Source: Candidatus Poribacteria bacterium
Lineage (GTDB): Bacteria; Poribacteria; WGA-4E; WGA-3G
Direction of reading: 5' to 3'
DNA length: 64,000 bases
Assembly: GCA_965205025.1 (NCBI GenBank)
Contig: CBDBFU010000014.1
Coordinates: 256,001 to 320,000, forward strand
The notes under the pieces are model-generated. The model saw only the letters and a list, made by a program, of their open reading frames with translations. It did not search any database and had not been told where the DNA came from. How positions within the stretch are numbered: the stretch's first letter is position 1; the number at the start of each line of letters is the position of its first letter. Positions 27,138 to 56,545 of the stretch are shown here, piece by piece. The position numbers and the translations under genes are program-made.

Positions 27138-27691
<554 letters not shown>

Positions 27692-35488: not shown

Positions 35489-35586
35489 AAGATGCCAACG
35501 AATCCAACTTAACCATTCATAAACGATCACTGGAAAGCTTATAAACCTCAGCATTCCAGCTATCCTATGGTCATATGATACTATTT
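35489..35586 (-). repeat. Conserved 3'-flank element of CTD genes, copy 1
   Basis: 35523-35586 is identical to 61024-61087. Confidence 0.85.
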
Positions 35587-38130
35587 GCGTATAATCATCT
35601 TGCGTGTAGCAATGTATTTACCAGCTATTAATGTGTAGAAGTACACACCACTGGCAACATATTCACCACTTTCATTCTTACCATTCCAATACACCGCGCT
35701 ATTTCGTTGTAGATATGAACCAACTGATTGTTGTCCCATTGCTAATGTTCGTATTAATATCCCATCAGTACTATAGATCTGTATTGTAACATCTGATGGT
35801 TGAGATAGTTGGTACGGTATCCATGTTTCAGGATTGAATGGATTTGGATAATTGGGTAGGAGTGCTGTCTTATTTGGTGTTAACTGAAGTAGAAACTGCT
35901 CCAGATATTGTATTCCTTTTTGAATTATTGGATCTGATAAATTAAGCTGTTGAGCTTGTATCAACCAATCGTGTATATTTTCAGTCTTTAGATTTTTATT
36001 CTTACTATATTTTACAGGGGCATCATTACCTTCATTCAATACTCCTGCAACCTTGATAAGATCAGCAATATCAACAACATCATCTCCATTTACATCTGCT
36101 GCATTTTCACCAGTCTGTCCAAAATTTGCCGCAATAACGACTAAATCTTTAACATCTATAACTCCATCATTATTAACATCTTCTTTAATTCGGGAAGGAG
36201 TGAATAAAGTTGGATAATCCCAAAACAGTATTGTTCCATCTACGCCTAATGTTGCGAGAGTATCCCCATCAGGACTAAACTTTAAATCATCAATTCCATT
36301 CGCCATACCTTTTAAAATAGTTTTTAGATCTCCATTTGATGAATCCCAAAATCGTATTGTTCCATCCTTTCTATCTCCAGCAGAAATGAGAGTTTTCCCA
36401 TCTGGACTGAAAGTAATTTTAACATATCTATATGTATGTCCTGTGTTAATTATCGTTCTTTCTTCAGTATATAAATTCCATATATACAACTGTTGTGATC
36501 CACTGACTGAAGCAATCAATCTTCCGTCTGGACTAAAAACTATATTTGTTCCAATGGCTGACGGGTGTGGTATTTCTGTAATAAGTTCTCTTCTTGAAAA
36601 ATCCCATAATCTAATTGCAGACGAATCCCCTGTAACAAGGATTCTTCCATTAGGACTATACGCGACCTGCTTCGTCTGTGTTATTTCTGTTGGAATAGTC
36701 CATAGTGGTTTATAGGATATTGTATCCCATAGAACAACCGCACCTTTGTTTACAGACGCAGCAACGATTGGTTCGTATGGATGGAATGCAACAGAACTGA
36801 CATTACTTTTATGTCCATATAGTGTTGCTTTCGTTTTTCCAGTTGAGACATCCCATAACCTTATACTGTTTTCATTAGCACTCCATATAGATATAGACAA
36901 GGGATATGTTATAGAACCAGTAGCAATGGTTTCTCCATCAGGACTATAAGATACTGAAGCTAAGAGATCATATTGACCATGACCCGTACTGATGAGTTTT
37001 CCAGATGTAGTATCCAAAAGACGAAGTGTGTTATCTCTGCCAATTGATGCGATTGTTTCTCCATCAGGACTAAAGTCAATTTCAGACCATAAAGCCAGGT
37101 GATTATCTATGGTATTTATCTTCTCAAGTGTTTGAGTATCCCAAAGATGAATATTTCCGTCCCTACTACCACAGACTAATGTCTTTCCATCAGGACTAAA
37201 TGAGACACTTATAACCGACGAAGTATGAGCGATAAGAGTGTTCATGTGACGCATGGTATTCATATCCCATAGACATAAAATTCCATCATCACTAACACTG
37301 GCAAGGATACTACCATCTTTATTGTAATCTATACTATTTACACCCAGCATGTGTCCTAAAAGTGTCTGTATTAATGTACCCGTTTCTACATCCCATAAAT
37401 GTATGGAAGTATCCCATCTACCGGAACAACTTGCAATTGTTTTTCCATCAGGACTAAATGAAATATCCGGTACACCAAATAAGCCAAACTCACTATATGT
37501 AATGATAGTCTTATCGAGTTCACCTGTTGGCAGATTCCATAGCTTAATTGTATTGCGGTCATCATAACCACCTGTAGCGAGGATTTTTCCATCAGGACTG
37601 AATTCAAGACAGGTTGCATCATCTTCATGTCCATCAAGGGTTGTTATAATTCTTCCAGTAGCCACATCCCATAGCTTTACTGATGAATCCTTGTACCAAC
37701 TACATGTTGCGAGGATTTTCCCGTCTGGACTAAACTCCAGATCAGTTATCTCATCTGTGTGGGCAGAGAGAACAGATATGAGTTTCCCCGTAGGTACATC
37801 CCATAATAAGAATTCTCCAGCACTACTACTTGCCAATGTATTACCATCAGGACTGAAGGATACGCTTGTAACACGTCTTGAATGATTTGTAAATAGACTT
37901 TGTTCTTTACCAGTATTTGCGTTATATATCCAAACCCCAATTGAACTTGGTACAGCAACGAGTGAATTGTCGGGTGAAAAGATGATATTTCCAGTAATCT
38001 CTCCTTTTCCAAGACGTTTATATGCACCATTAGGGAGTTCCCACTTTGTGTAATCCTGCGCAAATACGGTTAATGGTAATAGGGATAACAACCAAAGCAA
38101 GACAGAGATGGATAGTAGGATCTTTTTCAT
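35581..38130 (-). CDS. Secreted WD40 beta-propeller + dockerin + FlgD-Ig CTD protein (subtype A2)
   Basis: Signal peptide, GH...FSPDG...WD repeats, paired DVNxDG dockerin motifs, NYPNPFNPETWIPYQL CTD. Confidence 0.9.
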   Translation of the reverse strand: MKKILLSISVLLWLLSLLPLTVFAQDYTKWELPNGAYKRLGKGEITGNIIFSPDNSLVAVPSSIGVWIYNANTGKEQSLFTNHSRRVTSVSFSPDGNTLASSSAGEFLLWDVPTGKLISVLSAHTDEITDLEFSPDGKILATCSWYKDSSVKLWDVATGRIITTLDGHEDDATCLEFSPDGKILATGGYDDRNTIKLWNLPTGELDKTIITYSEFGLFGVPDISFSPDGKTIASCSGRWDTSIHLWDVETGTLIQTLLGHMLGVNSIDYNKDGSILASVSDDGILCLWDMNTMRHMNTLIAHTSSVISVSFSPDGKTLVCGSRDGNIHLWDTQTLEKINTIDNHLALWSEIDFSPDGETIASIGRDNTLRLLDTTSGKLISTGHGQYDLLASVSYSPDGETIATGSITYPLSISIWSANENSIRLWDVSTGKTKATLYGHKSNVSSVAFHPYEPIVAASVNKGAVVLWDTISYKPLWTIPTEITQTKQVAYSPNGRILVTGDSSAIRLWDFSRRELITEIPHPSAIGTNIVFSPDGRLIASVSGSQQLYIWNLYTEERTIINTGHTYRYVKITFSPDGKTLISAGDRKDGTIRFWDSSNGDLKTILKGMANGIDDLKFSPDGDTLATLGVDGTILFWDYPTLFTPSRIKEDVNNDGVIDVKDLVVIAANFGQTGENAADVNGDDVVDIADLIKVAGVLNEGNDAPVKYSKNKNLKTENIHDWLIQAQQLNLSDPIIQKGIQYLEQFLLQLTPNKTALLPNYPNPFNPETWIPYQLSQPSDVTIQIYSTDGILIRTLAMGQQSVGSYLQRNSAVYWNGKNESGEYVASGVYFYTLIAGKYIATRKMIIRK

Positions 38131-38140
38131 TTTTGTTCTC

Positions 38141-40654
38141 CTATTTCCTAATTAGTAATCGTCTGGTAGCATTAAACTGTCCTGAAGAGAGGGAATAAAA
38201 ATAACTGCCACTTGCTACATGTTCACCATGTTCATTTTTCCCATCCCAATGGGCTGCACGGGTTCGGGAGTGATAGATTCCAGCTTGTTGTCGGCCAACT
38301 TTTATTGTCCGAACTAACTCACCGTTAGCAGTATAAATGCGAATTGATACATCTGAAGGTGTATTAAGTTGATACGGTATCCACGTTTCTGGGTTTGCAG
38401 GATTAGGATAATTTGGTAAAAGCACTGTATCTTCAGGAGTAAAGTGGAATAAGATATTTTCAAGTACAGCAATACCTTTCTGTAATATTGGAGTTTTGTT
38501 AGGAATCATCTGTGATTGGGTTAACCATTGTTGAACCATTGTGGGGTTCAAAATATTTTTTGCATCTATTAATTTTCGTGGGGCACTATTATCATTATCA
38601 AGTGCAGCGGCAACTAATAACAAATCCTCAATATTCACAATTCCATCTTCATTTAAATCAGCACTATTTTCTGTTCCTGTTTTTCCAAATTGTAATGCGA
38701 CATAGATTAAATCTTGTAAGTCCACAGTACCATCATGATTAACATCTTCTAACAAGGTAGCCATTTCTAATTTCGAATCAATTATTGAGGCATAATCCCA
38801 TAGCATCACAGTCCCATCAGGACTGCCAGTAGCAAGTGTCTTTCCATCAGAAGTAAATACTACATCTAATACAACGTAACCATGTCCAATAAGTGTTTTA
38901 ATCATCTCACCAGTAGCCACATCCCATATTCTTACAATAGGATCATCCCATCCACCACAACTTACGAGATATTTCCCATCTTTACTAAATGCTATTTTTC
39001 GAACTTCTTCCCTATGTGCTGAATGAATTACCGTTGAATCCCCACTCGACATATCCCAAAATATTATTGAGTTATCCTTACCACAACTTGCAAGAATACT
39101 TCCATCATCATTAAAATCAACACAATGTACCCTATCAAGATGTCCATATAGGGTAGTAATGTTGGATCCAGTCGAAACATCCCAAATCCGTACTGTTTTG
39201 TCATTGCTACTACTGGCAAGAAGATTTTCATCAGGACTAAATTTAACTGAAGTAACCCCTGCTGTATGACCAATAAAAGCATCAATATGTGTACGACCTG
39301 CATACCATATATGTACAGCAGTATTTAATTCATTGCCCCCGGCAAGGAGTTGACCATCCGAGCTATACTCTAATCCAGACAAAAAAGCACTTGATGTAAG
39401 ATTCTTCCCTCCATTGCCTGTGAGTGTAGCAAGATATGTTAGATGATTAACATCCCAAATAAGTGTTCTACGACCATCTTGACTAGCAAGTATATTTCCA
39501 TCTGGTCTGAATGCTAAACCTATAAAGTAGTTATACCATTCATTGAAATATATCTGTCCTAACCGTTCGGTAGAGGAGGTATTCCACAGATTAATTTGAT
39601 AAGGACTTCCAGTTGCGAGTATGTTTCCATCCGGACTGAATGCTAAGGCTCTAATTTCAGTCGAATGTCCTTGAATTGACAGATTCCGTTCACCAGTATT
39701 CACATCCCAAATGAATAAACCATCTGAACTGCCGCTTGCGAGTGTAGTACCATCAGGACTGAATACTAATGTATACACTTTCTGCTTTTTATGTCCTATA
39801 AAATCTCTGATTCGTTCCCCCGAACCAACTTTCCATAGATCTAATTTTCCATATCTATCACCAATAGCAATGGTATTTCCGTCAGGACTAAAGGCAATTC
39901 CATGGATTGTTTGTTTTAATTGAATTGTATGATATCTATCTGTTATCACATCTGAAATATTCACTTTTTTCTGGTTCACACTTATACTTGCTACTTTACT
40001 TCCGTCTGGACTAAAGATGATTTTCGATATACTACTTCTATGGTTAGTTAGATATTTCTTCTGTGTAGCAGTCGTAAGATCCCATAACCGTACGGTATCA
40101 TACCAATTTCCACTAATAAGTGAGTTCCCATCAGGACTGAAAGCAAGTGAATTAACCCTACCTGTATGACCAGTCAGTATAGAAATTTTTTCACCTGAAG
40201 CAATATCCCATAGGACTATCGCTTTGCCTATTCCTGCAGCAAAGGTATATCCATCAGGACTGCTTGCAACTGTTCGTCTAACTCCTGTATCTCCTTCGAT
40301 CTCTGCAATTAAACTTCCATCATAGATTGATCTGATTTGGTAGATATCTTCAGTTTCAACACATACGTACATTTCCCCATCGGGACTAACACTAAGTAAG
40401 TCTTTACCATAGGTCGAAATAAAACCTAATTCAACACCAGTCTGTGCATCATAAGTCCAAATACCATTATAGCATTGAACAATTAACCTACTTCCATCAG
40501 GTGAATATGCCAGACTCCTAACAATTCCTTTACCAATCCGTAATTTTGCCCCATCAGGTAAATCCCATTTCATGTATTGATTCGCATAGGAAAATGGAAG
40601 AAAATGTAAAGAAATATATAGACATACAAGCATAATCTGTTTGATAGTTTTCAT
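38141..40654 (-). CDS. Secreted WD40 + dockerin + CTD protein (subtype B2)
   Basis: Same architecture; GRTH motif; dockerin DLIYVALQF. Confidence 0.9.
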   Translation of the reverse strand: MKTIKQIMLVCLYISLHFLPFSYANQYMKWDLPDGAKLRIGKGIVRSLAYSPDGSRLIVQCYNGIWTYDAQTGVELGFISTYGKDLLSVSPDGEMYVCVETEDIYQIRSIYDGSLIAEIEGDTGVRRTVASSPDGYTFAAGIGKAIVLWDIASGEKISILTGHTGRVNSLAFSPDGNSLISGNWYDTVRLWDLTTATQKKYLTNHRSSISKIIFSPDGSKVASISVNQKKVNISDVITDRYHTIQLKQTIHGIAFSPDGNTIAIGDRYGKLDLWKVGSGERIRDFIGHKKQKVYTLVFSPDGTTLASGSSDGLFIWDVNTGERNLSIQGHSTEIRALAFSPDGNILATGSPYQINLWNTSSTERLGQIYFNEWYNYFIGLAFRPDGNILASQDGRRTLIWDVNHLTYLATLTGNGGKNLTSSAFLSGLEYSSDGQLLAGGNELNTAVHIWYAGRTHIDAFIGHTAGVTSVKFSPDENLLASSSNDKTVRIWDVSTGSNITTLYGHLDRVHCVDFNDDGSILASCGKDNSIIFWDMSSGDSTVIHSAHREEVRKIAFSKDGKYLVSCGGWDDPIVRIWDVATGEMIKTLIGHGYVVLDVVFTSDGKTLATGSPDGTVMLWDYASIIDSKLEMATLLEDVNHDGTVDLQDLIYVALQFGKTGTENSADLNEDGIVNIEDLLLVAAALDNDNSAPRKLIDAKNILNPTMVQQWLTQSQMIPNKTPILQKGIAVLENILFHFTPEDTVLLPNYPNPANPETWIPYQLNTPSDVSIRIYTANGELVRTIKVGRQQAGIYHSRTRAAHWDGKNEHGEHVASGSYFYSLSSGQFNATRRLLIRK

Positions 40655-40662
40655 AATAATTT

Positions 40663-43164
40663 CTACTTCCGGATTACCATTTGTCGTGTGGCAACAAACT
40701 GTCCTGCTGTAAATTCATAGAAGTATACTCCACTCGCTACATGTTCACCATATTCATTTTTCCCATCCCAATAGGCAGCGCGGGAACGAGATTGGTATAG
40801 TCCTGGTTGTTGATATCCTATTTGTAATTGTCGAATCAATTGACCATTTGTTGAATAAATTCGGATTGTTACATCTGATGGTTCGGATAGTTGATACGGA
40901 ATCCACGTTTCAGGATTGAATGGATTCGGATAATTTGGAAATGCAACGGTTTTTTCAGGATACTTACTATTCAGAAGTTGTTCAAGAAAATATATCCCTC
41001 TTTTTGAAACTGGATCAGTAAGATTATGTATCTGTGCCTGTTTCAACCACTCCTTGATAGTACTTGCTTTTAGAATATCTTTATAGGGTGTTTTTGTTGG
41101 AGATGCAGATTCCAGATTAATTGCTGCGGCTACCATGATAAGATCCGTAATATCAACAACACCATCACCATTTATATCAGCTGCATTTGGACCAGTTTTA
41201 TTAAAGTTTGTAGCAACTACAATCAAATCCTTAATGTCAACAACGCCATCCCCATTTACATCAGTTGTTAATGAGATGGGTTGAATTATATCATCAAAAT
41301 CCCATATATAGATTACTCCTCCCTCACCGGCAGTTGCGACTGTGCTCCCATCTTTACTGATCCTAATTTGACCAAAACCATCCGGAATCCCAGAAAATTG
41401 ATGTATTATTTCGGCAGTTCCAGGTTCCCAAAATGATATAGTACCACCATCAGAATTGGTCATACTAATTAGGAACTTTCCATTAGGACTATATGTAATT
41501 CCACTGACACCGACATCTGTCTGGGTAAGTTCTCTCTTAAGCGTTCCCGTTTCCACATCCCATAAATTCACAATTCGTGATGCAAATACGGCTGCAAGAG
41601 TGTTCCCATTCGGACTGAAGGTCAAGGATCTAATCCAAGTATAACCTACCCCGAAGTTTCTTACTTGTTTTCTCTTTGATAAATCCCATAGTAATATGTC
41701 CTGCCCTCCAGATGCCAACATTTGACCATCTTGACTAAAAGCTAAACTAAGTGGAGCCTGTGTAGGTCCAGTAAAGGTGGCAATGTGATGTCCAGTCTGT
41801 GAATCCCATAGACACACATTCTTATCTCTACCTCCTGTGGCAAGCATTTTTCCATCTGGACTGAATCTTACAACATATATATTCCCATTATGTCCCATTA
41901 GCATCAGTTTAGTTTTTCCAGTTACAGCATCCCATAATCGGACTGACCTGTCATAATAATTCCCACTACTCGCTATAGTTTTACCATCTGGACTTATATC
42001 AATTGATTCAATGTAAGATGTATGACCGATTAGAGTGTTTATCTTTTTTCCAGTTGCTGTTTTCCAAAGGTATAGTTTATTGTCCCAACTACCACTAACT
42101 ATCATATCCCCGTTAGGACTTATAGCAAAACTGTCGCCAGCAGTATGGTGACCTAAAATCTGAGTAATGGTTTCTAAAGTCTCAGCATTTCTGATCTGTA
42201 TAGTTCCATCAAAGCTACTACTTACTAAAAGGTTGCCATCTGGACTATAGAGTACATTTTGTACTCTGTATGTATGATCAAGGAGAGTAGTTTTATAGGT
42301 GGCAGTAGATACATCCCACAAAACAACCGTACCATCATCGCCTCCACTGGCAAGAGTATTTCCATCTGAACTAAATGATACACTGTTGACTTTTCTTGTA
42401 TGTCCAGAAAGCGTGTTTATCAGTTCTCCAGTGTCTGTATTCCATAGGTGAATTGAGGTATCTGACCAATCACTGCCTCCGGCGAGTATACTCCCATCAG
42501 GACTAAATGCTAAACTCTGGACACCATCTTCATGACCAATGATGAATTTCTTTAATCTGAGTGTTTCAACATCCCACAATATCACCTCATTTTCATATTC
42601 TGTACAACTTGCAAGAGTTTTACCATCAGGACTAAATATCACATCTGATACATTATCTGAATGATCAGTGAAGATTGCCAACATGACACCACTATTCACA
42701 TCCCATAATATCACAGATTCGTCTGTCCCTCCTCCACAACTTGCAAGTATATTACCATCAGGACTAAAGGCGACACCAAGGATTTCATCGTGATGTCCCA
42801 TAAATCTTTTGATGACTTTTCCTGTAGAAACATTCCAGAGTAATAATTTTCCTTCACGACTCCCACTTGCAAGTATCTTTCCATCCGGACTGTAAGCCAC
42901 ACTTGCAACACCTTCTTGATGTCCTAAGAACAAATCGAGTTCTTTTCCTGAAAATACATCATAAATCCATGTCCCAATTGGCGTTGTAACCACAAGTCTC
43001 TTGCTATCAGGAGAAAATGCAATTTCTCCATCTAACATACCTTTACCAATTCTTAATTTTGCGCGTTCCGGTAAATTCCATCTCATATACTCTTGTGCAA
43101 ATAATGTGATGGGTAAATTAATTATAAGAAGTAGTATGAGGGTAAAATATCGTGTTTTCTTCAT
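40663..43164 (-). CDS. Secreted WD40 + dockerin + CTD protein (subtype A1)
   Basis: Same architecture; dockerin DLIVVATNF. Confidence 0.9.
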   Translation of the reverse strand: MKKTRYFTLILLLIINLPITLFAQEYMRWNLPERAKLRIGKGMLDGEIAFSPDSKRLVVTTPIGTWIYDVFSGKELDLFLGHQEGVASVAYSPDGKILASGSREGKLLLWNVSTGKVIKRFMGHHDEILGVAFSPDGNILASCGGGTDESVILWDVNSGVMLAIFTDHSDNVSDVIFSPDGKTLASCTEYENEVILWDVETLRLKKFIIGHEDGVQSLAFSPDGSILAGGSDWSDTSIHLWNTDTGELINTLSGHTRKVNSVSFSSDGNTLASGGDDGTVVLWDVSTATYKTTLLDHTYRVQNVLYSPDGNLLVSSSFDGTIQIRNAETLETITQILGHHTAGDSFAISPNGDMIVSGSWDNKLYLWKTATGKKINTLIGHTSYIESIDISPDGKTIASSGNYYDRSVRLWDAVTGKTKLMLMGHNGNIYVVRFSPDGKMLATGGRDKNVCLWDSQTGHHIATFTGPTQAPLSLAFSQDGQMLASGGQDILLWDLSKRKQVRNFGVGYTWIRSLTFSPNGNTLAAVFASRIVNLWDVETGTLKRELTQTDVGVSGITYSPNGKFLISMTNSDGGTISFWEPGTAEIIHQFSGIPDGFGQIRISKDGSTVATAGEGGVIYIWDFDDIIQPISLTTDVNGDGVVDIKDLIVVATNFNKTGPNAADINGDGVVDITDLIMVAAAINLESASPTKTPYKDILKASTIKEWLKQAQIHNLTDPVSKRGIYFLEQLLNSKYPEKTVAFPNYPNPFNPETWIPYQLSEPSDVTIRIYSTNGQLIRQLQIGYQQPGLYQSRSRAAYWDGKNEYGEHVASGVYFYEFTAGQFVATRQMVIRK

Positions 43165-43225
43165 AATATGCTTTATAGTAGTAGAAATGTTGTTTGATAT
43201 TGTTCTGTTGATATAGTGTCTTAAG

Positions 43226-45742: not shown

Positions 45743-45752
45743 ATTATATTAT

Positions 45753-48293: not shown

Positions 48294-48304
48294 GGGAAGA
48301 TCTC

Positions 48305-50800
48305 CTATTTTCGTATAACCATGCGTTTTGTTGCCATATAGTTTCCAGCAGATAAAGTATAAAAGTATACGCCACTTGCCACAGGTTCACCATGTTGATT
48401 TTTTCCATCCCAATATGCTGCCCGACTTTGATCTTGATAAACCCCAGCAGGTTTAGACCCTAATTCAAGCGTGCGAATCACTTGGCCGTTTGCTGAATAG
48501 ATTTTTATTATTGGGTTTGTAGCATTTGCCAACTGATATGGAATCCATGTTTCTGGATTAAAAGGATTCGGGTAATTTGACAATAACATGGTTTGATGAG
48601 GAGTTAAGTGTACTAACAGTTGTTCAAGAAAATTGATTCCCTGATGGTAGATTGCGTTATTCTGCATTTGCATTGCCTGGTCAATCCACTCTTGAACTAT
48701 ATTTGAAGTAAGATAATATTCAGATTTAGGAAGTATTAATGGCGCGGCATTCTTATTTGTAATAGCAGCTGCAACTAATAAAATATCAGCGATGTTCACT
48801 ACACCATCATTATTAATATCCGCGTCATTTTTTGTTACTGAATTACCAAATTGAGATGCAACATAAATGAGATCCTGCACATCTACAACTCCATCCCTAT
48901 TGACATCTTCGGAAAGGATAACTGGTTGATTTTCCGTTCCGATTATTGCGTTATAATTCCAAATTAGTATTTCACCATCCCAATTTCCTGTAGCAAATGT
49001 ATCACCATCCGGACTAAAATATAGCAGACGCGGACCTATTCTATGGCCATTTAGAATCTTCCTCTGCACACCAGTGGCAACATCCCAGAGCCTAATTGAT
49101 GGATCTTCACTACCAGCACAACTGACAAGTATTTTTCCGTCATGACTGAATGCGAGACTTTGTATTCCATCGGTATGTCCGGACAAGGTGGAAATCGGTA
49201 GTCCAGTGACAGTATCCCAAAGAATAATAGTTGTATCATCACTTCCACTGGCAACAATACTTGCATCGTGATTAATAGCGACATAGTTTACATTGTCAGT
49301 ATGTCCCTTGTAGGTATGTATTTCAGTTGCGGTGTCAACATCCCATAGACGGACAGTATTATCTTTGCTTCCACTCGCAAGTAAGGTGCTATCATCACTG
49401 ATGGCTACAGATGTCACCTCATCTGAATGTCCAATTAATGTTGATTCATAGGTGCGTCCCTTAAAGAATAAATGTACTAACCAATTACTATTTCCTGCAG
49501 CAAGGTATTGACCATCTCGACTGTAGGCAATTGAAGTATATCCAGAGTAGGTGACAGGAGCATGTGATGTCACTCTCCTTGCATAGACAGTTGCTTTATA
49601 TACATAGGTAGACAAGTCCCATAGAACAATTCTGAAGTCATTACTTGCAAGAGTTGTACCGTCAGGACTAAAAGCTAAATCCGAATATGTTGAATGATGT
49701 CCTGCAAATATCAAAGCCTTAGTTTTACCAGTATTTAGATCCCAAAAATATATTTTTTCACGATTAGATGCCGCAAGTGTAGTTCCATCTGGACTGAGAG
49801 CCATACCCCAAGCATGTAAATGACCATCAATTGATAACAAACGTCTTTTACTTTCTGTATCCCAAATGAATAATTCTTCTGCCCCACTACTGGCAATGTA
49901 GGAACCATCTCGACTAAATGCTATTCTGGAAACTCCTCTAATATGACCACCAAGTTTGGCAATATATGCACCGGTGATGGCATCAAATAGGTGTAAACCG
50001 TCATACCCTCCAACAGCTAAGATTTTACCATCTGGACTCAATGCGATGCACTGAGCAGACATAGTGTCAATCTTCTGTTTTATTTTTCCAGATTCTGTAT
50101 CCCATAACTCAACCGTATCATTCCGATTGGCAGTAATCACCGTGTTACTATCAGGTGTAAAAACAAGATTCTCACTCCCATAAACATATCTTGATAATTT
50201 TGCTGTCTCAATTCCAGTAGCTATATCCCATAAACGTATGGTACTATCAAAACCTATGGTAGCCATCGTCTTACCATCGGAATTAAAAACGATCGTCCTG
50301 AACCGACCATTTGGCAACTCAAGTCTTGTCAATTGTTTTCCAGTAATAGTATCCCATAGATAGATCTTATCACTAAATATCCCAGCAAGTATTTGTCCAT
50401 CTGGACTGAAAACCACCTCACGAATTCCTTCTGGATCTCCGACTAATGACACATTGAAATTGGGATTGAGCAAGTCGCGTATTTTGAGTGTATTAGATGA
50501 ATCAGAAATAACATAAGCATTTGAATATGGACTCACTCCAAGAATCTGAGAAGAATATTCTGCGATAAAGTCAAGTTCTGTTCCAGTGCTGACATCATAG
50601 CTCCATAGTCCTATACCTGTGTCCACAATTAAACGGTTACTATCATGTGAGAATGTTATATTCTGTACTGTCCCTTTCCCTATACGAGATATAGCACCTT
50701 CGGGTAAATCCCATTGATGATAATTTTGAGCGTTGGTGTTTATGGGAAAAAGAATTAAAATGAATAATAAAGATAGTATGTTAAATTCTAACACTTTCAT
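48305..50800 (-). CDS. Secreted WD40 + dockerin + CTD protein (subtype B2)
   Basis: Same architecture; GRTY motif; dockerin DLIYVASQF. Confidence 0.9.
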   Translation of the reverse strand: MKVLEFNILSLLFILILFPINTNAQNYHQWDLPEGAISRIGKGTVQNITFSHDSNRLIVDTGIGLWSYDVSTGTELDFIAEYSSQILGVSPYSNAYVISDSSNTLKIRDLLNPNFNVSLVGDPEGIREVVFSPDGQILAGIFSDKIYLWDTITGKQLTRLELPNGRFRTIVFNSDGKTMATIGFDSTIRLWDIATGIETAKLSRYVYGSENLVFTPDSNTVITANRNDTVELWDTESGKIKQKIDTMSAQCIALSPDGKILAVGGYDGLHLFDAITGAYIAKLGGHIRGVSRIAFSRDGSYIASSGAEELFIWDTESKRRLLSIDGHLHAWGMALSPDGTTLAASNREKIYFWDLNTGKTKALIFAGHHSTYSDLAFSPDGTTLASNDFRIVLWDLSTYVYKATVYARRVTSHAPVTYSGYTSIAYSRDGQYLAAGNSNWLVHLFFKGRTYESTLIGHSDEVTSVAISDDSTLLASGSKDNTVRLWDVDTATEIHTYKGHTDNVNYVAINHDASIVASGSDDTTIILWDTVTGLPISTLSGHTDGIQSLAFSHDGKILVSCAGSEDPSIRLWDVATGVQRKILNGHRIGPRLLYFSPDGDTFATGNWDGEILIWNYNAIIGTENQPVILSEDVNRDGVVDVQDLIYVASQFGNSVTKNDADINNDGVVNIADILLVAAAITNKNAAPLILPKSEYYLTSNIVQEWIDQAMQMQNNAIYHQGINFLEQLLVHLTPHQTMLLSNYPNPFNPETWIPYQLANATNPIIKIYSANGQVIRTLELGSKPAGVYQDQSRAAYWDGKNQHGEPVASGVYFYTLSAGNYMATKRMVIRK

Positions 50801-50810
50801 TTTATGACTC

Positions 50811-53342
50811 CTATTTTCGTATTACCATTCTTTTTGTAGATGAGTAATTACCAGCTGCAAATTCGTAGATATATATACCACTTGCCACAGGTTCACCTAT
50901 TTCATTCTTACCATCCCAATACCCTGCACGAGTACGATCTTGATATAACCCAGGTTGTTGATGTCCTAATGAAATATTCTTTATCAATAGACCATCTGCT
51001 GAATAAATCCTGATGGATACATCCGTTGATTCAGATAGCTGATATGGAAACCATGTTTCAGGATTGAATGGATTAGGATAGTTTGGTAGGAGTAGAGTTT
51101 TCTTTGGAGTTAAGTCAATCAGAAGTTGCTCCAAAAACATTTTCCCTTTTTGTGTTGTTGGATTAATTATATTCAGTGATTGAGCTTGTTTAATCCAGCG
51201 TTGCACATCTAAAGTTGTAATTGGTAGATTAGGATTTTGTGTAGAGATTGATGGAGCTGCTGCATTTCCTAATTCTGCGGCAATCTGTATGAGATCCGCT
51301 ATGTTTACGATACCATCACCATTAATGTCTGCTATATTCGGTCCTGTCTTACCAAAGTTTGCAGCAACGACAATTAAATCGTAGACATCCACAATACCAT
51401 CCCCATTTACATCTGTTATTAAGTATGTCGGAGTTATAATCGAATTGTATTCCCATAATAGAATAGTACCATCTTTACTTCCGGATACAAGTGTTTGTCC
51501 ATCAGGACTTATTGAAACATCAACAATCCCATTCGTGTGTCCTGATAAGGTATGTTTTAGTACTCCACTATTTACATCCCATAAATATAATGATGGATTA
51601 GCGATATTTCCTCCCGCAATCACGGTCTGACCATCAGAACTGAATGTTATACTACTGACAACTTCCGGACTGTCTGGTAGAATTTTCTGTTCCCCAGAAA
51701 CGACATTCCATAGTATAACTTTATGGTAAGCTCCTCCACTTGTTAATGTTCTTCCATTAGGACTGAACGCAAGGGCATTCACTCTATTTGAATGACCAGT
51801 ATATTCTTCAATCTGGCTATAATTTATGAGACTCCACAGTCGAATTTTTCCATGACTGTTCCCTGATGCCAACGTATAACCATCAGGACTGAAAGCAAGA
51901 CTTAAAATAGGATCATTGTGTGTATTGTTAGTAAAATCGGTTAGTGTCGCATAATTATTACCTGTGACAGTGTTATACAAATATATGTCATCACTGTCAC
52001 CAGCAGATGCAAGGATTTTACCATCTGGACTGAATATAACTTTATTTATAACATTTGTATATCCCAGAACTATTTTGCTTAATCTTCCATTCTCAGCATC
52101 CCATAATCGGACAGTAGGATCATCATAACTGCTACTACTAACTACTGTCCTACCATCAGGACTAAAATCAACCGATTTAATCCTTGCAATATGTCCAGTA
52201 AGGGTATATATACCTTCACCGGTTAGAGTATCCAATATCCTTACTTTACTATCCCAACTTCCTAATATAAGCATCTTACTATTAGGACTTATTGCCATAG
52301 TCGAAATATTTGGAATGTGTCCTGTGATTATCTTCTTCGGTTCAAGACTGTCAGCATCGCGAATTATAATAGTGCCATCCCAACTACCACTGATAAGTGT
52401 CTTACCATCCGAACTAAAGGCAACATTTATAACTGAAGTAGGATGTTCAAGCAATGTTGTCTTGTACTTATAAGAAGGAACATCCCATAATACTATTGTC
52501 CCATCATTACCACAACTTACAAGCGTCTGACCGTCAACACTGAATGTAATACTATTGACACCTTGTGTATGTCCAGTTAATGTGGTTATCAGTTCATCAT
52601 TAACAGTATCCCAAATACGAATTGTGTTATCTAAAAACCCTGCACAACTTGCCAAGATTTTTCCATCAGGACTAAAAGCAAGATCGTTAATATCACCTGT
52701 ATGTCCTATGTAAGTTGTTTTTAGTGTACCAGTAGCAACATCCCATAACTTTATCAAAGACTCCTTCCATTCTGTTCCAGTTGCAAGAGTTTTTCCATCA
52801 GGACTAAATGCAAGGCTTGAGATTTTTTCTGTCTCATCAATATTGATTGAACTGACTTCTCCAGATGCTACATCCCAAATTCGTACAGTTCTATCGTTCC
52901 AACCAGCAGAAGTTGCAAGAGTTTTTCCATCAGGACTAAAAGCAAGTTCGTTAATATCACCTGTATGTCCTAAGAATCGAGCTTTAATTACTCTATTGTT
53001 AACATCCCATAGTAATAATGATTCATCCGAACTCCCACTCGCGAGTGTGGTACCATCCGGACTAAAGGTAAGACCTGCTATGCTCGGGGCAGGCATACTC
53101 AATAGATCAAATTCAGCTCCCGTTTGAGCATCATATAGCCAGATTCCAATTGTAGTTGCAACTGCAAGGATGGAATTGTCAGGTGAAATTGCTATATCTC
53201 CAGAGATTCTACCTTTACCGATTCTAAGTTTCGCACCATCCGGTAAATGCCATCTCATATAATCTTCCGCATAACCCGTATGTGAAAAATAAATCATAAT
53301 AAGCAGTATTATTATTATATGTAAGTGTGTTCTTGATTTCAT
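50811..53342 (-). CDS. Secreted WD40 + dockerin + CTD protein (subtype A1)
   Basis: Same architecture; YMRWHLP and YKTTLLEH motifs shared with 40663. Confidence 0.9.
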   Translation of the reverse strand: MKSRTHLHIIIILLIMIYFSHTGYAEDYMRWHLPDGAKLRIGKGRISGDIAISPDNSILAVATTIGIWLYDAQTGAEFDLLSMPAPSIAGLTFSPDGTTLASGSSDESLLLWDVNNRVIKARFLGHTGDINELAFSPDGKTLATSAGWNDRTVRIWDVASGEVSSINIDETEKISSLAFSPDGKTLATGTEWKESLIKLWDVATGTLKTTYIGHTGDINDLAFSPDGKILASCAGFLDNTIRIWDTVNDELITTLTGHTQGVNSITFSVDGQTLVSCGNDGTIVLWDVPSYKYKTTLLEHPTSVINVAFSSDGKTLISGSWDGTIIIRDADSLEPKKIITGHIPNISTMAISPNSKMLILGSWDSKVRILDTLTGEGIYTLTGHIARIKSVDFSPDGRTVVSSSSYDDPTVRLWDAENGRLSKIVLGYTNVINKVIFSPDGKILASAGDSDDIYLYNTVTGNNYATLTDFTNNTHNDPILSLAFSPDGYTLASGNSHGKIRLWSLINYSQIEEYTGHSNRVNALAFSPNGRTLTSGGAYHKVILWNVVSGEQKILPDSPEVVSSITFSSDGQTVIAGGNIANPSLYLWDVNSGVLKHTLSGHTNGIVDVSISPDGQTLVSGSKDGTILLWEYNSIITPTYLITDVNGDGIVDVYDLIVVAANFGKTGPNIADINGDGIVNIADLIQIAAELGNAAAPSISTQNPNLPITTLDVQRWIKQAQSLNIINPTTQKGKMFLEQLLIDLTPKKTLLLPNYPNPFNPETWFPYQLSESTDVSIRIYSADGLLIKNISLGHQQPGLYQDRTRAGYWDGKNEIGEPVASGIYIYEFAAGNYSSTKRMVIRK

Positions 53343-53416
53343 ATATAATCCTCAAGTTGTTCTAAATGACGATGTTGAAGTAATCTTACTGGGAACTCCA
53401 TGCTACTGAATTAAAA

Positions 53417-55963
53417 TTATTTCTGTATGACCATTCGTCGTGTAGCGGAAAACTCTCCTGCCGAGAGTGTATAGAAATATATTCCACTGGCAACATTTTC
53501 ACCGATTTCATTCTTACCATCCCAATATGCGGCTTTATTACGACTATGATATACTCCTGCAGATTGATTTCCAACATTCAAAGTTCGTACTAACTGACCA
53601 TCAGATGAATAAATGTATACACTAATTTTTGCTGGTTTTGATATCTGGTATGGAATCCAAGTTTCAGGATTGAATGGGTTTGGATAGTTGTTTAGGAGGG
53701 CACTACTTTTTGGTGTTAATGCAGTTAGAAGATGTTCAAGCACAGTAATACCTTTTTGGAATTCAATAGACGGATTCCTATATTTTTGTGCTTGTTCAAT
53801 CCAACTTTTAATTTGGTCAATTGAGAGTAAATTGGTTGGAGAGGAAGCTCTATTTGGGGCGGCATTTTCATTCTCTAATGCTGTAGCAATTAATACAATA
53901 TCAGCAATATCAACAATTCCATCTTGATTAACATCAGCTGCATTTTCGTTATCTTTTGTACCAAATTGTGATGCAACATAAATCATATCCTGAATGTCTA
54001 CAACACCATCACGGTTTACATCTTCTAAGGTATATTGAGTTTCTCGGTTAATATCTCTTTCTGTCCAATCCCATATTAAGGCTGTTCCATCTGCGCTTAG
54101 AGATACCAAGGAATTTCCATCAGCACTGAAAGCAAGATCTCTAATCCCAGTTGTATGTCCTTTGATCGATGGTAGCGGTTCACCTGTAGCAACATCCCAA
54201 AGAAGAATAGTGTCTTCATAACTTCCCGCACTGGCAAGTGTTCTACCGTCAGTACTGAAAGCAAGATTCCTAACTGAACTCGTATGTCCTGTTAAGATAG
54301 ATCGAATCTCACCGGTACCAACATTCCATAGGATCACAGTTTCATCTCTACTTCCACTGGCAAGTATACTGGCATCAGGACTAAATAGCACACTTACCAC
54401 TTCATCAGTATGACCTCTGAATGTATCTATATGGGTTTCACTTTCTACATCCCATAAACGTACTGTTTGATCTTTACTCCCACTTGCAAGTGTTCGACTG
54501 TCATAACTGAATGCAATGGTAGTTAGTCCTGCAGAATGCCCCGAAAGTGTACCTTTATGTGTACGTCCGAGATGCCACAATTGTATTGTTGCCTGACTAC
54601 TTCCGCTTGCTAAGTATCTTCCATTTGGACTAAATGCAATTGAAGCTATACCATATCCTGAGGCACTATTTCCTAAATACCCCCTTAATGTAGTTAGATG
54701 TGTTCCATCATTTACATTCCACAGACGTATTTGCCAACCTGTCTCACTCGCAAGTATAGAACCATCAGGATTGAACGACATTGTCCCGTTACCCCAATAA
54801 CTTTCATACAATGTCGTTTTTAACGTACCCGTAACTGCATCCCATAAACGAATTTCTTCCCTACTACCAATAGCAATTGTGCGATTATCAGGGGAGAGTG
54901 CAAGACTATAGACATAATCATTATGACCAGAAATTGACATTTTTTGAGTACCAGAAACTACATCCCATAGATGTAATTCTCCATTACCACTGGTAATTAG
55001 TATCCGTCCATTTGGACTAAAGGTAATGGATGAGATAGAGTACAAATGTCCAGTAAGTTCAAATTGATATTTCTCATTTTCAACATCCCAAATCCTTAAT
55101 TCTCTTCCTTTAGCAATAGCCAATATTGACCCATCTGGACTAAAAGTAGACTTTGAAGATATTGGTTGCTTTGGGACACCAAGGTAGTCTCCGGTTTCAA
55201 TATCCCATAGATGTGCTCCACTTCGATTATAACCGACTCCAGCGAATGTTCGACCATCAGGGTAGAATATGATCTTTGAAACACCATCTGTGTGTTTTGT
55301 ATAAGTGGTTCTATGAGTTCCTGATGCAACATCCCATAAACGAATAGACTTATCCCAACTCCCTGTCACAAACGTATTTCCATCTGAACTAAATGCCATT
55401 GATGTAATAATACTTGTATGTCCTTCAATAATATGAAGCTGTTCACCTGTTGCAACATCCCAAAAAACTGCATTGTAATCTGAATTGGCACTGACAAGAA
55501 TCTTCCCATCTGGACTGAAAATCACAGGTCCAGCATATCTATTTTCTATTTGAAACTTTTTTATAATTTGCCAATTGGATGTATCCAGTATACGGACATA
55601 TTCATCATCACTAGCATAGGCGAGCATCCTTCCATCTGGACTGAAAGCTATACTATCAATGTATGGATTCTCTTCACGAAGAAGTGATAATTCATTACCA
55701 GTCTGTGCATCATAGATCCAAATTCCAATAGTACTGGCAACAGCAAAGTATTTTCCATGTGGAGAAAACTCTACCTCATATATTCTACCCTTACCAAGTC
55801 GCATTTTTGCGCCATCCGGTAATCCCCAACGCGCATGATTCTGTGCAGATACAACAGATACAAATATGAGAAAAATTAAACTGAATGATAACAAGAATGG
55901 CATCCAAAATTTCCAAATATAGTTTAACTCTGTATTGACCAGATTCTTCATAAGATACTCCAA
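53417..55963 (-). CDS. Secreted WD40 + dockerin + CTD protein (subtype B1); exact start uncertain
   Basis: Same architecture; GNSASGYGI and GRTHKGTL motifs shared with 43226. Confidence 0.9.
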   Translation of the reverse strand: MEYLMKNLVNTELNYIWKFWMPFLLSFSLIFLIFVSVVSAQNHARWGLPDGAKMRLGKGRIYEVEFSPHGKYFAVASTIGIWIYDAQTGNELSLLREENPYIDSIAFSPDGRMLAYASDDEYVRILDTSNWQIIKKFQIENRYAGPVIFSPDGKILVSANSDYNAVFWDVATGEQLHIIEGHTSIITSMAFSSDGNTFVTGSWDKSIRLWDVASGTHRTTYTKHTDGVSKIIFYPDGRTFAGVGYNRSGAHLWDIETGDYLGVPKQPISSKSTFSPDGSILAIAKGRELRIWDVENEKYQFELTGHLYSISSITFSPNGRILITSGNGELHLWDVVSGTQKMSISGHNDYVYSLALSPDNRTIAIGSREEIRLWDAVTGTLKTTLYESYWGNGTMSFNPDGSILASETGWQIRLWNVNDGTHLTTLRGYLGNSASGYGIASIAFSPNGRYLASGSSQATIQLWHLGRTHKGTLSGHSAGLTTIAFSYDSRTLASGSKDQTVRLWDVESETHIDTFRGHTDEVVSVLFSPDASILASGSRDETVILWNVGTGEIRSILTGHTSSVRNLAFSTDGRTLASAGSYEDTILLWDVATGEPLPSIKGHTTGIRDLAFSADGNSLVSLSADGTALIWDWTERDINRETQYTLEDVNRDGVVDIQDMIYVASQFGTKDNENAADVNQDGIVDIADIVLIATALENENAAPNRASSPTNLLSIDQIKSWIEQAQKYRNPSIEFQKGITVLEHLLTALTPKSSALLNNYPNPFNPETWIPYQISKPAKISVYIYSSDGQLVRTLNVGNQSAGVYHSRNKAAYWDGKNEIGENVASGIYFYTLSAGEFSATRRMVIQK

Positions 55964-56493
55964 TGGATATACATTTACTGATAGAATAGAGAAACTCTTG
56001 ATGTGTTAATGTATCTTTAGCAAAAATAATGCCAAATATGAGACTGCGTATTATGATGGTCTATATAAAATCAATACCTATTCTCTCAAAATAACATCAT
56101 TACTGTCCAAAATATGAACACACAGTATAATAGTCTATGTTATACCAATTTTACTTAATTAACTAACATTAATAGCAGATTGGAAAGCCAATTTAGTTTA
56201 GAAGGTATTATATAGGTGTATGTTGAGTATGTACTGGTTGAGGAAATGAAGAAATAGTTTGTTTCTTTGGTTAATTAATGGAGGTTATGTCAGCAAGTAC
56301 AAAAAGGATAGAATTAGGATTTCAAAGCGGATTGAGACTCAGACCTGCACATGAACGTGCATAATAGGAAAGGATGTACAATATCGGGCAGTAATACAAT
56401 CAGTTGTGTACCTGGATGTAAATATGTAATAGAACAAATAGTATATGAAAGGAATACAGTTTTTTAGGTGAGTGGATACTGAAATGAAATGTA

Positions 56494-56528
56494 AAGGCAT
56501 GGATAATATTCTCAATTATCCATGCCTT
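56494..56528 (-). terminator. Hairpin after the YWTD gene stop, probable terminator
   Basis: AAGGCATGGATAAT-attctca-ATTATCCATGCCTT perfect inverted repeat. Confidence 0.7.
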
Positions 56529-56545
56529 TAGTTTGTATACTGACT

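Follow-up and report, generated by a model that had tools for sequence, protein, structure and literature searches.

The locus described here raises the question of why eight WD40 genes with dockerins stand side by side in a poribacterial genome, how this arrangement arose and what the encoded proteins might do. Poribacteria are uncultured and are noted for their many eukaryote-like repeat proteins, the role of which is unknown. We analyzed a stretch of 64,000 nucleotides from a Candidatus Poribacteria contig (CBDBFU010000014.1), called the window in the following. The explanation that we favor, with a confidence somewhat better than even for the whole of it, is that eight paralogues make up one long operon here and encode paired double-propeller proteins, which would be exported by means of a C-terminal sorting domain (CTD) and docked to cohesins on the cell surface.

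Organization of the array and architecture of its proteins

ORF calling revealed eight intact ORFs between positions 35581 and 55963, all located on the minus strand and 831-849 aa in length (Table 1). A sequence-only reading of this DNA had placed an eight-gene array at exactly these coordinates. In the order of transcription from g1 to g8 the intergenic gaps are 74, 10, 11, 10, 61, 8 and 10 nt; five of the seven fall into the range of 8-11 nt that had been claimed for most of them. The two long gaps come right after the genes of class B1 and nowhere else, which is itself a period-4 feature. Signs of an operon are the single strand and the mostly 8-11-nt gaps, and at three junctions the TAG stop codon lies within a ribosome-binding site, TAGGAG. 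The true start of g1 is likely the ATG at 55951, which gives a protein of 844 aa and is preceded by a GGAG 7 nt upstream. A consensus scan of the array for promoter-like sites showed no excess over shuffled sequences (71 versus 81 +/- 10), and terminator-like sites within the array were at most slightly enriched (14 versus 9 +/- 2.6 in shuffles). The operon promoter is likely located in the 582-nt region upstream of g1, as no other long gap exists on the 5' side. Scans of the window for tRNAs and Rfam families gave no matches.

Table 1. Positions of the array genes and of selected features within the window.
Feature	Position	Strand	Basis
g1, class B1	53417..55963	-	ORF; signal peptide, 14 WD40 blades, dockerin, linker, CTD
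g2, class A1	50811..53342	-	ORF, Pfam matches, AF2 model, sister of g6
g3, class B2	48305..50800	-	ORF, Pfam matches, WD40-region tree
g4, class A2	45753..48293	-	ORF, Pfam matches, WD40-region tree
g5, class B1' (sister of g1)	43226..45742	-	Tree with outgroups
g6, class A1' (sister of g2)	40663..43164	-	Trees with and without outgroups
g7, class B2'	38141..40654	-	Pairs with g3 in window-only tree
g8, class A2'	35581..38130	-	ORF, Pfam matches, WD40-region tree
g1 dockerin (aa 645-703), example of the module in all eight	53855..54031	-	PF00404
g1 T9SS type A sorting domain/CTD (aa 757-848), example	53420..53695	-	TIGR04183, FlgD_ig, model
g4 3' end (CTD), homogenised with g6 40666-40950	45756..46040	-	Nucleotide and amino-acid identity
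582-nt intergenic region upstream of g1	55964..56545	-	Sole long gap 5' of the array
Upstream neighbour, 1257 aa, YWTD propellers and CTD	56546..60319	-	Domain matches
M23 peptidase-cohesin-dockerin-linker-CTD protein	61082..63019	-	PF01551, PF00963, PF00404, FlgD_ig

In all eight proteins a signal peptide is followed by 14 WD40 blades, and the C-terminal part is made up of a type I dockerin, a linker of two helices and a T9SS type A sorting domain. Signal peptides were called by inspection of the N-termini, using the hydropathy of the core and an A-x-x motif: in each of the eight, A-Q/E-D/N-Y comes after a hydrophobic core with a mean hydropathy of 2.1-2.9 over 15 aa, and the proteins are predicted to be Sec-exported. 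The WD40 family PF00400 (cut-off 27) scored 302 bits with g8 and 268 bits with g7, and the other six proteins align throughout. The AF2 models of g1 and g2 (pLDDT 86.9 and 83.2) contain 56 strands each, in addition to the helices of dockerin and linker and a beta-sandwich CTD (residues 768-846 in g1). In the predicted structures the 56 strands correspond to 14 four-stranded blades and thus to two seven-bladed propellers. The top matches of a Foldseek search were also tandem seven-bladed propellers, 2ymu_A (E 2e-53, 34% identity) and 1nr0.

The dockerin family PF00404 matched all eight proteins at or above its cut-off (23.7-35.1 bits compared with 22.9), and solved cellulosomal dockerins appeared as weak sequence matches (E 0.002-0.9). 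The module comprises two Ca-binding loops of the form D.N.DG..D..D with a helix after each loop (residues 657-665 and 686-698 in the model of g1). Among 110 sequences D648, N650, D652, D659, D677, D681 and D688 are invariant and N679 nearly so. For the sorting domain, TIGR04183 reached 30.9-40.0 bits (cut-off 23) in all four array proteins tested and matched both neighbours as well; FlgD_ig was found in all eight, and PF18962 reached its cut-off of 27 in three of them, with scores of 21.1-26.1 in the remaining five. This T9SS-type domain, common to all eight C-termini, had gone unmentioned in the sequence-only reading. A catalytic domain was found in none of the eight proteins.

The B-then-A gene pair and the duplication of the array

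Along the eight ORFs two gene classes alternate strictly (B, A, B, A and so on). The motifs by which the sequence-only reading had defined them are present in the translations, GRT[HY] and D[LM]IYVA[SL]QF in the four B proteins and GKG.[IL].G...[FI]SPD and DL....A.NF..TG.N in the four A proteins, and so are those quoted for genes four positions apart: GNSASGYGI and KH.DGV...FYP for g1 and g5, YMRW.LP, YKTTLL.H and GSWD for g2 and g6, EL.FI..Y....L.VSP for g3 and g7, and C.GRWD and PLWT for g4 and g8. The chance of a perfect alternation of four A and four B genes is 2/70 = 0.029, and after shuffling of the labels on the tree 13 of 500 arrangements were as clustered as the observed one. Amino-acid identity amounts to 43-49% within A, 40-55% within B and 35-40% between A and B. 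Across the phylum 15 columns discriminate the classes, among them a B-only W[HY].GRT[HY] blade and several A-only loop insertions.

Using g4 as the query we obtained 59 related loci, every one of them from Poribacteria-type MAGs, in agreement with the assignment to Poribacteria in the sequence-only reading. In these loci and the window B is followed by A in 51 adjacencies, A by B in 24, B by B in one and A by A in none; alternation is strict in 75 of the 76, and the lone B-B adjacency involves a truncated B without its partner. The arrays contain 2, 4, 6 or 8 genes, and the eight-gene form is common to the window and three close relatives. The split into A and B is ancient, with 53 B and 49 A among 117 family members, and the trees of A and B mirror each other (B1/A1, B2/A2, Bp/Ap, Bx/Ax). 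The synteny in other Poribacteria demonstrated that the B-then-A pair is kept across all sampled lineages: this gene pair is the unit of evolution and is conserved throughout the phylum.

The sequence-only reading had explained the two classes by obligate A/B pairs with two dockerin specificities, which can be taken to mean a 1:1 heterodimer of B and A with class-specific dockerins that address two cohesins. The absence of A-A neighbours, the tight gene coupling, the 15 discriminating columns and a class-specific consensus in the first dockerin helix point in this direction, and the synteny, with its alternation, tight gaps and mirrored trees, suggests that the A/B pairs may be obligate. However, mirrored trees also arise from the co-duplication of neighbours without physical contact, and the gap between B1 and A1 is 61-74 nt in the window and 35-194 nt in pair-only genomes. 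We regard such a heterodimer with two specificities as possible but rather unlikely.

In a tree of the eight full-length proteins A and B were separated with a support of 100/100, and the pairs g1+g5 (100/100), g2+g6 (99/98), g3+g7 (78/84) and g4+g8 (56/36) were formed. The tree of the WD40 region showed the same split (100/100) and the pairs g1+g5 (100/99), g2+g6 (98/96), g3+g7 (94/93) and g4+g8 (92/90), and thus recovered the A/B split together with the predicted period-4 sisters. A tree of the C-terminal part (dockerin, linker and CTD; 209 columns) did not recover the period-4 pairs and gave no resolution because of the high conservation of this part and an old g4/g6 conversion, and it was therefore left out of the history. 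The claim that genes four apart are the closest held in the all-versus-all identities for g1/g5 (54.6), g2/g6 (48.7) and g4/g8 (47.1) and failed for g3/g7 (41.6, compared with 42.4 for g3/g5). With outgroups in the tree, g1+g5 (100/100) and g2+g6 (86/81) excluded the copies from loci L057 and L018, and g4+g8 was weak (59/88) with two extra sequences within. The pair g3+g7 was not recovered in this tree, in which a 97/97 clade excludes g7; an AU test did not reject the union of the two (p 0.21).

The relatives add to this history. L057 has four genes in the order B1-A1-B2-A2, an exact match to the unit, L009 contains a fifth pair between the two four-gene units, and L003 retains a truncated remnant of the fifth pair. 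The fifth pair and its remnant indicate a birth and death of pairs without a clean step from four to eight. The nested doubling from one to two, four and eight genes that had been proposed is supported in outline by the ancient A/B split, the four-gene unit of L057 and the sisters g1+g5 and g2+g6; in view of g3+g7 and the fifth pair it is largely right but too tidy. Our analysis showed that arrays gain and lose pairs or four-gene blocks by tandem duplication and loss.

At the DNA level there is a single family of long repeats, the 300-nt end that codes for the CTD. It is present in eight copies with a spacing of 2506-2606 nt, and the identity of 62-71% indicates that these copies are old. The CTDs of g4 and g6 are identical to 88% in amino acids and 84% in nucleotides, compared with 57-71% and 62-74% in other pairs, and share an exact match of 48 nt (45906-45953 and 40816-40863); L001 (82%) and L003 (84%) show the same similarity. 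An old gene-conversion tract has homogenised the two ends. As the route from four to eight genes we considered a crossover joining the CTD of an upstream gene to that of A2, but dropped it, as the spacer between g4 and g5 measures 10 nt in the window and the spacers of L001 and L003 carry remnants of the fifth pair.

Orthologues of g1 are 83-85% identical, those of g3 in L001, L003 and L002 73-78%, and a partial orthologue of g8 (L001:20529-22538) 78%. In all 20 orthologue comparisons dN/dS was between 0.17 and 0.35 (g3 0.17-0.21, g4 0.20-0.27, g5 0.28-0.35, g6 0.25-0.31, g8 0.26), and all array copies are under purifying selection. Among the eight paralogues the amino-acid identity is 57-88% in the CTD versus 26-57% in the WD halves, and in the loops it is 23% on the top face versus 47% on the bottom face (Mann-Whitney p 5e-12). 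Face-specific diversification was rejected as a proof of ligand panels: the ratio of paralogue to orthologue divergence is alike in all structural classes (2.4-3.4), and the structural FSPDG and LWD motifs alone would give the same contrast. The variability of the top face is consistent with a ligand-panel model, but not diagnostic.

The dockerin cassette, cohesins and a model of surface display

Dockerin, linker and CTD form a cassette of about 200 aa at the C-terminus of each array protein. The full cassette was also detected in 12 non-WD ORFs of the related loci, and the eight of these that were scanned contain LRR, LRR-YWTD, beta-helix-type (NosD) or cohesin domains. The cassette ends unrelated families, and the dockerin is therefore not special to the WD40 genes. 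This also affects the two dockerin specificities that had been postulated: two discriminating columns of the dockerin (Q/N in the first helix and N/A at the C-terminal edge) and the differing consensus of helix 1 (I-f-VASQF in B, V-v-VAANF in A) lend them weak support, but these are only two of the 15 columns, and the cassette is a generic one.

The cohesin that had been proposed for the ORF at 61082-63019 was confirmed (PF00963, E 4e-10). The C-terminal cassette of this protein aligns with that of the eight array proteins, and it is a candidate docking partner. The other neighbour combines LDL-receptor class B (YWTD) propellers with the same CTD and is devoid of a dockerin. The cohesin-dockerin region matches 547 database proteins of many architectures at E<=1e-5, some of which also bear metalloprotease-type Pfam codes. 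Cohesin genes adjoin arrays in at least ten loci. In eight loci a cohesin gene lies <=700 nt upstream of the first B gene, WD40-cohesin ORFs upstream of arrays are listed in nine loci, and in L001 an ORF with cohesin and cassette lies 1.4 kb upstream of the array; in pair-only genomes no cohesin gene adjoins the pair. A single cohesin is present in 22 of 24 cohesin ORFs, the exceptions being L004:20408-22480, which has three, and L036:5133-7619, in which one match is full and two are partial. Among the cassette-bearing proteins scanned the M23 peptidase was the sole enzyme domain, the others carrying WD40, LRR, YWTD, beta helix or cohesin. A complex prediction that combined the window cohesin (alignment of 25) and two Ca with residues 641-706 of g1, its dockerin (alignment of 108), gave a score of 0.08 (mark 0.32), which speaks neither for nor against binding.

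It is conceivable that the dockerin-like module binds no cohesin and acts as a Ca-stabilised spacer in an export or anchoring cassette, the proteins being released or anchored to the outer membrane by the CTD. Such a role would fit with a cassette that ends many unrelated proteins, the cohesin-bearing ones included, and that is far more conserved than the propellers, and dockerin-like modules are reportedly widespread outside cellulosomes. However, cohesins are abundant in the same proteomes, mostly located directly before a dockerin, their genes adjoin the arrays, and every Ca-ligand position of the dockerin is invariant, or nearly so in the case of N679. We therefore consider the spacer role unlikely.

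According to the docking explanation that we favor, the sorting domain would bring the proteins through the outer membrane and onto the cell surface, and the dockerin would plug into cohesin-bearing surface proteins, the M23-cohesin neighbour in the window and the upstream WD40-cohesin proteins elsewhere. The outcome would be a non-enzymatic, cellulosome-like display network with the propellers as ligand-binding platforms. Divergence is highest in the loops of the top face, and the eight proteins would thus offer a set of differing binding surfaces. B and A would probably be required in equal amounts, possibly as a heterodimer. The secreted binding repertoire suggested from the sequence alone appears plausible.

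Concerning export, the parts of the single-cell genome study that bear on secretion report no Por structural genes in Poribacteria (Kamke et al. 2014, PMC3909097). Parts of a T9SS were found neither in the 32 flanking ORFs scanned, a chosen subset of 261 candidate flank ORFs, nor in the 24 other window ORFs scanned. A more far-reaching "adhesome" would combine obligate B/A heterodimers, export by a CTD pathway other than the classical Bacteroidota T9SS, docking onto WD40-cohesin or M23-cohesin scaffolds, and a panel of alternative receptors that recognize surfaces of hosts or particles and owe their diversity to the birth and death of pairs; as a whole we judge this combination to be quite unlikely. 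The proteins might also be eukaryote-like effectors aimed at an animal host, for example against sponge phagocytosis, rather than serve as general surface adhesins. Passages of the single-cell study describe WD40 and other eukaryote-like repeats as enriched in sponge symbionts and, in Poribacteria, as often linked to a Por CTD, and they describe the LDL-receptor class B repeats, encoded here by the neighbour at 56546-60319, as rare in bacteria (PMC3909097). The sequence, however, indicates no host target, the nearest solved structure, 2ymu, is a bacterial-type repetitive propeller, and every poribacterial lineage sampled has kept the pair. A role as host effector is in our opinion very unlikely.

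Comparison with known systems

A literature search retrieved no paper combining Poribacteria, WD40 and dockerin, and nothing relevant for Poribacteria and dockerin; for Poribacteria and "type IX secretion" the abstracts point to nothing on these genes, and PMC8546597 has no text on WD40, cohesin or secretion systems. The closest precedent is the finding of WD40 genes with a Por-secretion C-terminal domain in poribacterial single-cell genomes. The passages concerned share with our locus the phylum, the combination of WD40 and TIGR04183 and the export pathway, raised there as a question, and do not mention a dockerin, a linker, two classes, B-A pairing, tandem arrays or a linkage to cohesins (Kamke et al. 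2014, PMC3909097). Our analysis adds that the WD40 family with the greatest expansion in the phylum is organized as a conserved two-gene module, that its members carry a common dockerin-linker-CTD cassette and that cohesin-bearing genes lie beside the arrays. Module, cassette and cohesin linkage provide a concrete, testable model of surface delivery and arrangement, and they sharpen the question of 2014, namely by which machinery T9SS-type sorting domains are handled in a phylum from which no T9SS genes have been reported. The arrays are, in addition, a clean natural example of pair-preserving duplication over many independent events.

Like the array proteins, 2ymu ("highly repetitive propeller structure") has 14 WD40 blades in two propellers, at an identity of 34%. 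This protein, which we take to be cyanobacterial, is not known from a paired array, and its matched chain of 577 residues corresponds approximately to the propeller region alone. With the type A cargo of the Bacteroidota T9SS, such as gingipains, the array proteins share the signal peptide and a beta-sandwich CTD of about 90 aa (TIGR04183); in contrast to that cargo, the CTD comes after a dockerin and a helical linker here, and the phylum has no reported T9SS core genes.

The inferred cellulosome-like system of Ca. Stygibacter (Cloacimonadota), as far as it is described in the sections cited, likewise combines cohesin and dockerin outside the Firmicutes with a T9SS-type CTD for surface attachment, with dockerins on enzymes (GH18, GH57, peptidases) and the CTD on the scaffoldin only (PMC8542988). 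In our case every subunit carries both dockerin and CTD, and the subunits are binding modules. The clostridial cellulosome is similar in its type I dockerin with two Ca-binding repeats and in the cohesin modules of the same proteome. Its cargo consists of glycoside hydrolases, whereas the cargo here is non-catalytic (WD40, LRR, YWTD), and the array proteins are not the carbohydrate-active enzymes that define the dockerin subunits of a cellulosome. Moreover, most cohesin proteins of the poribacterial loci have one cohesin and a dockerin of their own, and in this diderm organism every component ends in a T9SS-type CTD. Taken together, the model would extend the assembly by cohesin and dockerin to a diderm bacterium and to cargo that is non-catalytic.

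Arrangement and domain architecture of the eight genes

In the window, the array consists of eight minus-strand ORFs, all intact; they encode proteins of 831-849 aa and are numbered g1 to g8 along transcription (g1, g3, g5 and g7, class B; g2, g4, g6 and g8, class A). Their coordinates agree with those of the sequence-only reading, and every motif quoted there was found in the translations. From g1 to g8 the intergenic gaps measure 74, 10, 11, 10, 61, 8 and 10 nt, five of the seven thus falling within 8-11 nt. Because both long gaps are located directly 3' of a B1 gene (g1 or g5), the spacing also has a period of four. The start codon of g1 is most likely the ATG at 55951, with a GGAG 7 nt 5' of it, and not the TTG at 55963. 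At the g2-g3, g3-g4 and g7-g8 junctions the TAG stop codon supplies the first bases of the TAGGAG ribosome-binding site of the gene that follows, so that the conserved ...IRK-stop ends also act as regions of translation initiation. A consensus scan within the array revealed no excess of promoter-like sites over shuffled sequences and only a slight excess of terminator-like sites; the flanking gaps are 582 nt upstream of g1 and 559 nt downstream of g8. The arrangement is operon-like, and the eight genes would be co-transcribed.

The domain architecture of the array proteins is shown or strongly predicted. Each comprises an N-terminal signal peptide, WD40 repeats spanning about 590 residues, a type I dockerin (PF00404 at cut-off in all eight), a conserved, roughly 60-residue linker and, at the C-terminus, a T9SS type A sorting domain (CTD), the last of which had been overlooked in the sequence-only reading. 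FlgD_ig matched all eight proteins, and TIGR04183 scored above cut-off in all four array proteins tested. AlphaFold2 predicts 56 strands, forming 14 four-stranded blades, for both g1 (class B, pLDDT 86.9) and g2 (class A, pLDDT 83.2); in both models these are followed by two dockerin helices, two linker helices and a CTD folded as a beta sandwich. Among solved structures, tandem seven-bladed propellers come closest, namely 2ymu_A (E 2e-53, 34% identity), Aip1 (1nr0) and Utp/PWP2 proteins. In both dockerin loops the calcium-ligand positions are invariant in 110 family members.

Elsewhere the window contains a defence-island-like stretch and a region of about 4.8 kb in which no ORF exceeds 136 aa and the G+C content is low (0.34-0.37). 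The latter carries many dispersed direct and inverted repeats of up to 139 nt, one 68-nt copy being exact, and it yielded no match to tRNAs or Rfam families. Two ORFs between carB and the array gave no Pfam match.

Coordinates of features in the window and at loci of relatives (L numbers)
Feature	Location	Strand	Remark
Defence-island-like stretch	window 851-20643		
TdeIII restriction endonuclease	window 851-1621		
PLD-nuclease + SNF2-type helicase protein	window 5522-8821		
Eco57I/TaqI-like methylase	window 9675-12593		
Three FRG-domain + TPR proteins	window 14240-15433, 15666-17042, 18976-20643		
cNMP-binding + TIR protein	window 17069-17992		resembles Pycsar effectors
Repeat-rich region	window 22900-27700		
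Exact 68-nt copy	window 23571-23638, 26188-26255		
ORF, 262 aa	window 33495-34283		
ORF, 210 aa	window 34389-35021		
g8	window 35581-38130	minus	last in transcription order
g1	window 53417-55963	minus	first in transcription order
TAG/TAGGAG stop-RBS overlaps	window 50801-50810, 48294-48304, 38131-38140	minus	
CTD-coding ends of g4 and g6	window 45756-46040 and 40666-40950	minus	
YWTD-propeller gene, 1257 aa	window 56546-60319		between array and M23-cohesin gene; CTD, without dockerin
M23 peptidase + cohesin + dockerin + linker + CTD protein	window 61082-63019		cassette aligns residue by residue with the eight
Extra B-A pair in relative SB0202	L009:3024-8065		intact B gene, then A gene
Truncated class B gene, 550 aa	L003:12552-14204		between g4 and g5 orthologues; without dockerin or CTD
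TnpB gene (IS200/IS605-type RNA-guided endonuclease)	L005:5173-6204	minus	pair-only genome; between upstream WD40 gene and B-A pair

Two classes and the B-A pair as unit

All-against-all comparison gave 43-49% identity within class A, 40-55% within class B and 35-40% between the classes, and an alignment of the eight shows class-specific insertions and deletions throughout the propeller region. Maximum-likelihood trees were calculated for the full-length proteins and for the WD40 region only; the two branch-support values of each split are given in this order. The A/B split obtained 100/100 in both trees. The genes four apart were recovered as sisters: g1+g5 (100/100; 100/99), g2+g6 (99/98; 98/96), g3+g7 (78/84; 94/93) and g4+g8 (56/36; 92/90). 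The alternation of two classes with period-4 sister pairs, as claimed from the sequence, was thus borne out, with at least 92/90 for every pair in the WD40 region. Among copies the propeller halves share 45-64% nucleotide identity, and only the 300-nt end coding for the CTD forms a long DNA repeat (eight copies, 62-71% identity); judged by this divergence, the gene copies are old.

The best named relatives in a profile search were exclusively Candidatus Poribacteria, and the matches included a run of neighbouring locus tags from one MAG. With g4 as query and one genome per species, 59 loci were obtained, 56 of them titled Poribacteria and three 'uncultured bacterium'. ORFs were called in all loci and scored with an HMM of the eight, which yielded 191 ORFs at E<=1e-50. 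In the family tree of 109 full-length members and the eight, 53 members form a B superclade (support 99), 49 an A superclade (support 100) and 15 a third group, class C. Wherever classes A and B both occur, the gene order is strictly B then A: at distances of up to 700 nt, all loci and the window together show 51 B>A, 24 A>B, one B>B and no A>A adjacencies. One complete pair is present at 13 loci, either Bp-Ap (L005-7, L015, L021, L027, L028, L032, L035, L043, L044) or B2-A2 (L004, L056), and a single B2-A2 pair with an upstream cohesin gene or another family member nearby at L050, L054 and L012. Larger arrays contain four genes (L057 with B1-A1-B2-A2, L008, L017, L022), six (L025, L040) or eight (the window, L001, L003 and, in one further genome, L002+L009). 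The A and B superclades have matching subclades (B1/A1, B2/A2, Bp/Ap, Bx/Ax), and duplication has therefore taken the pair as its unit many times over.

Class C forms tandem arrays of its own without A/B alternation (L010, L014, L019, L020, L023, L024, L029, L033, L041, L047). In its dockerin consensus the two halves are nearly identical to each other.

History of the array

Nested doublings from one to two, four and eight genes had been proposed. With outgroups, the orthologue groups of g1 and g5 were joined with 100/100, the B1 genes of L057 and L018 lying outside. The g2 and g6 groups were joined with 86/81 within an A1 clade (97/95) to which L057/L018 also belong, and g4 and g8, along with L009:5537 and L008:4907, with 59/88. 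In the best outgroup tree of B2 the g3 group lies within a 97/97 clade of B2 genes from other genomes and g7 outside it. In the AU test a g3+g7 clade remains compatible with the data (lnL difference 5.0, p 0.21), and long-branch effects are plausible here because B2 evolves about twice as fast as B1 (dN to the same relative 0.17 versus 0.08).

SB0202 (L009) carries an extra B-A pair between its g4 and g5 orthologues. The truncated B gene of L003 is 65% identical to the extra B gene, and in L001 this position is occupied by a 316-nt spacer with short matches to the L003 region. On these grounds the common ancestor of the four genomes (window, L001, L003, SB0202) probably had at least five pairs, the fifth of which was lost without trace from the window, where the gap is 10 nt. 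The doubling scheme is thus largely right but too tidy, and the history of the array is one of birth-and-death evolution with the pair as unit.

Purifying selection acts on all eight genes: dN/dS was 0.17-0.35 in each of the 20 orthologue comparisons (with L001, L003, L002 and L009). Between g4 and g6 the CTDs share 88% protein and 84% DNA identity including a 48-nt exact match, compared with 62-74% DNA identity for the other pairs. The same excess was found in L001 (82%) and L003 (84%), which marks this as an old gene-conversion tract between non-sister genes; the tract explains the weak support for g4+g8 in the full-length tree.

Cassette, cohesins and proposed surface assembly

The full cassette of dockerin, linker and CTD is present in 149 WD-family ORFs and 12 other ORFs across the loci. 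In the eight non-WD ORFs scanned, it follows LRR, LRR+cohesin, LRR+YWTD+cohesin, beta-helix-type (NosD) or three-cohesin N-terminal parts; in four further ORFs, which give no linker match, dockerin and CTD accompany a beta helix, either alone or together with YWTD repeats. A query with the cohesin-dockerin region matched 547 database proteins of many architectures at E<=1e-5, the named ones being Poribacteria. The dockerin thus belongs to a general cassette common to several protein families. Of the 15 columns separating A from B phylum-wide, the dockerin contains only two (Q/N where helix 1 ends, N/A at the C-terminal edge), and the two dockerin specificities postulated earlier are therefore possible but weakly indicated.

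At nine loci (L008, L012, L017, L018, L040, L050, L052, L054, L057) a WD40-cohesin-dockerin-linker-CTD gene of about 960 aa with one cohesin is located 288-817 nt 5' of the first B gene, and its product could be the scaffold of B-A arrays. In L001 a cohesin-cassette ORF precedes the array by 1.4 kb, and no cohesin gene adjoins the pair in pair-only genomes. The shared cassette and the neighbouring cohesins are, like the domain architecture, shown or strongly predicted. The YWTD-propeller product of the window contains LDL-receptor class B (YWTD) repeats in three blocks; Kamke et al. (2014, PMC3909097) describe this domain as rare in bacteria. The N-terminal region of this product, about 350 aa long, gave no Pfam match.

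The array proteins would be exported by Sec and then by a CTD-dependent route, displayed on the cell surface, docked on cohesin proteins and would bind ligands with their propeller top faces. Among paralogues, divergence is greatest in the top-face loops (D-A, B-C), with 23% identity versus 47% in the loops of the bottom face (p 5e-12). This contrast could arise from the structural FSPDG and LWD motifs alone, and the ratio of paralogue to orthologue divergence is much the same in every structural class. The weakest point is the export route: scans of 24 ORFs in the window and 32 in the flanks revealed no T9SS parts, and Kamke et al. (2014, PMC3909097) state that poribacterial WD40 genes often carry a Por CTD and that Por structural genes were not found. 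Among the functional claims of the sequence-only reading, pairing and secretion are partly supported.

The combination of WD40 and Por CTD in Poribacteria is already in print in Kamke et al. (2014, PMC3909097), and for Cloacimonadota PMC8542988 infers cohesin-dockerin systems with a CTD-anchored scaffold. The main texts of the open-access literature searched contained nothing on the dockerin-linker-CTD cassette, the two classes, the B-A module, array dynamics or cohesin linkage. The array feature is real, phylum-wide and testable, yet made of known parts. Because its cargo is non-catalytic it is not a cellulosome; it would represent a new form both of T9SS-type cargo and of surface assembly through cohesins and dockerins.
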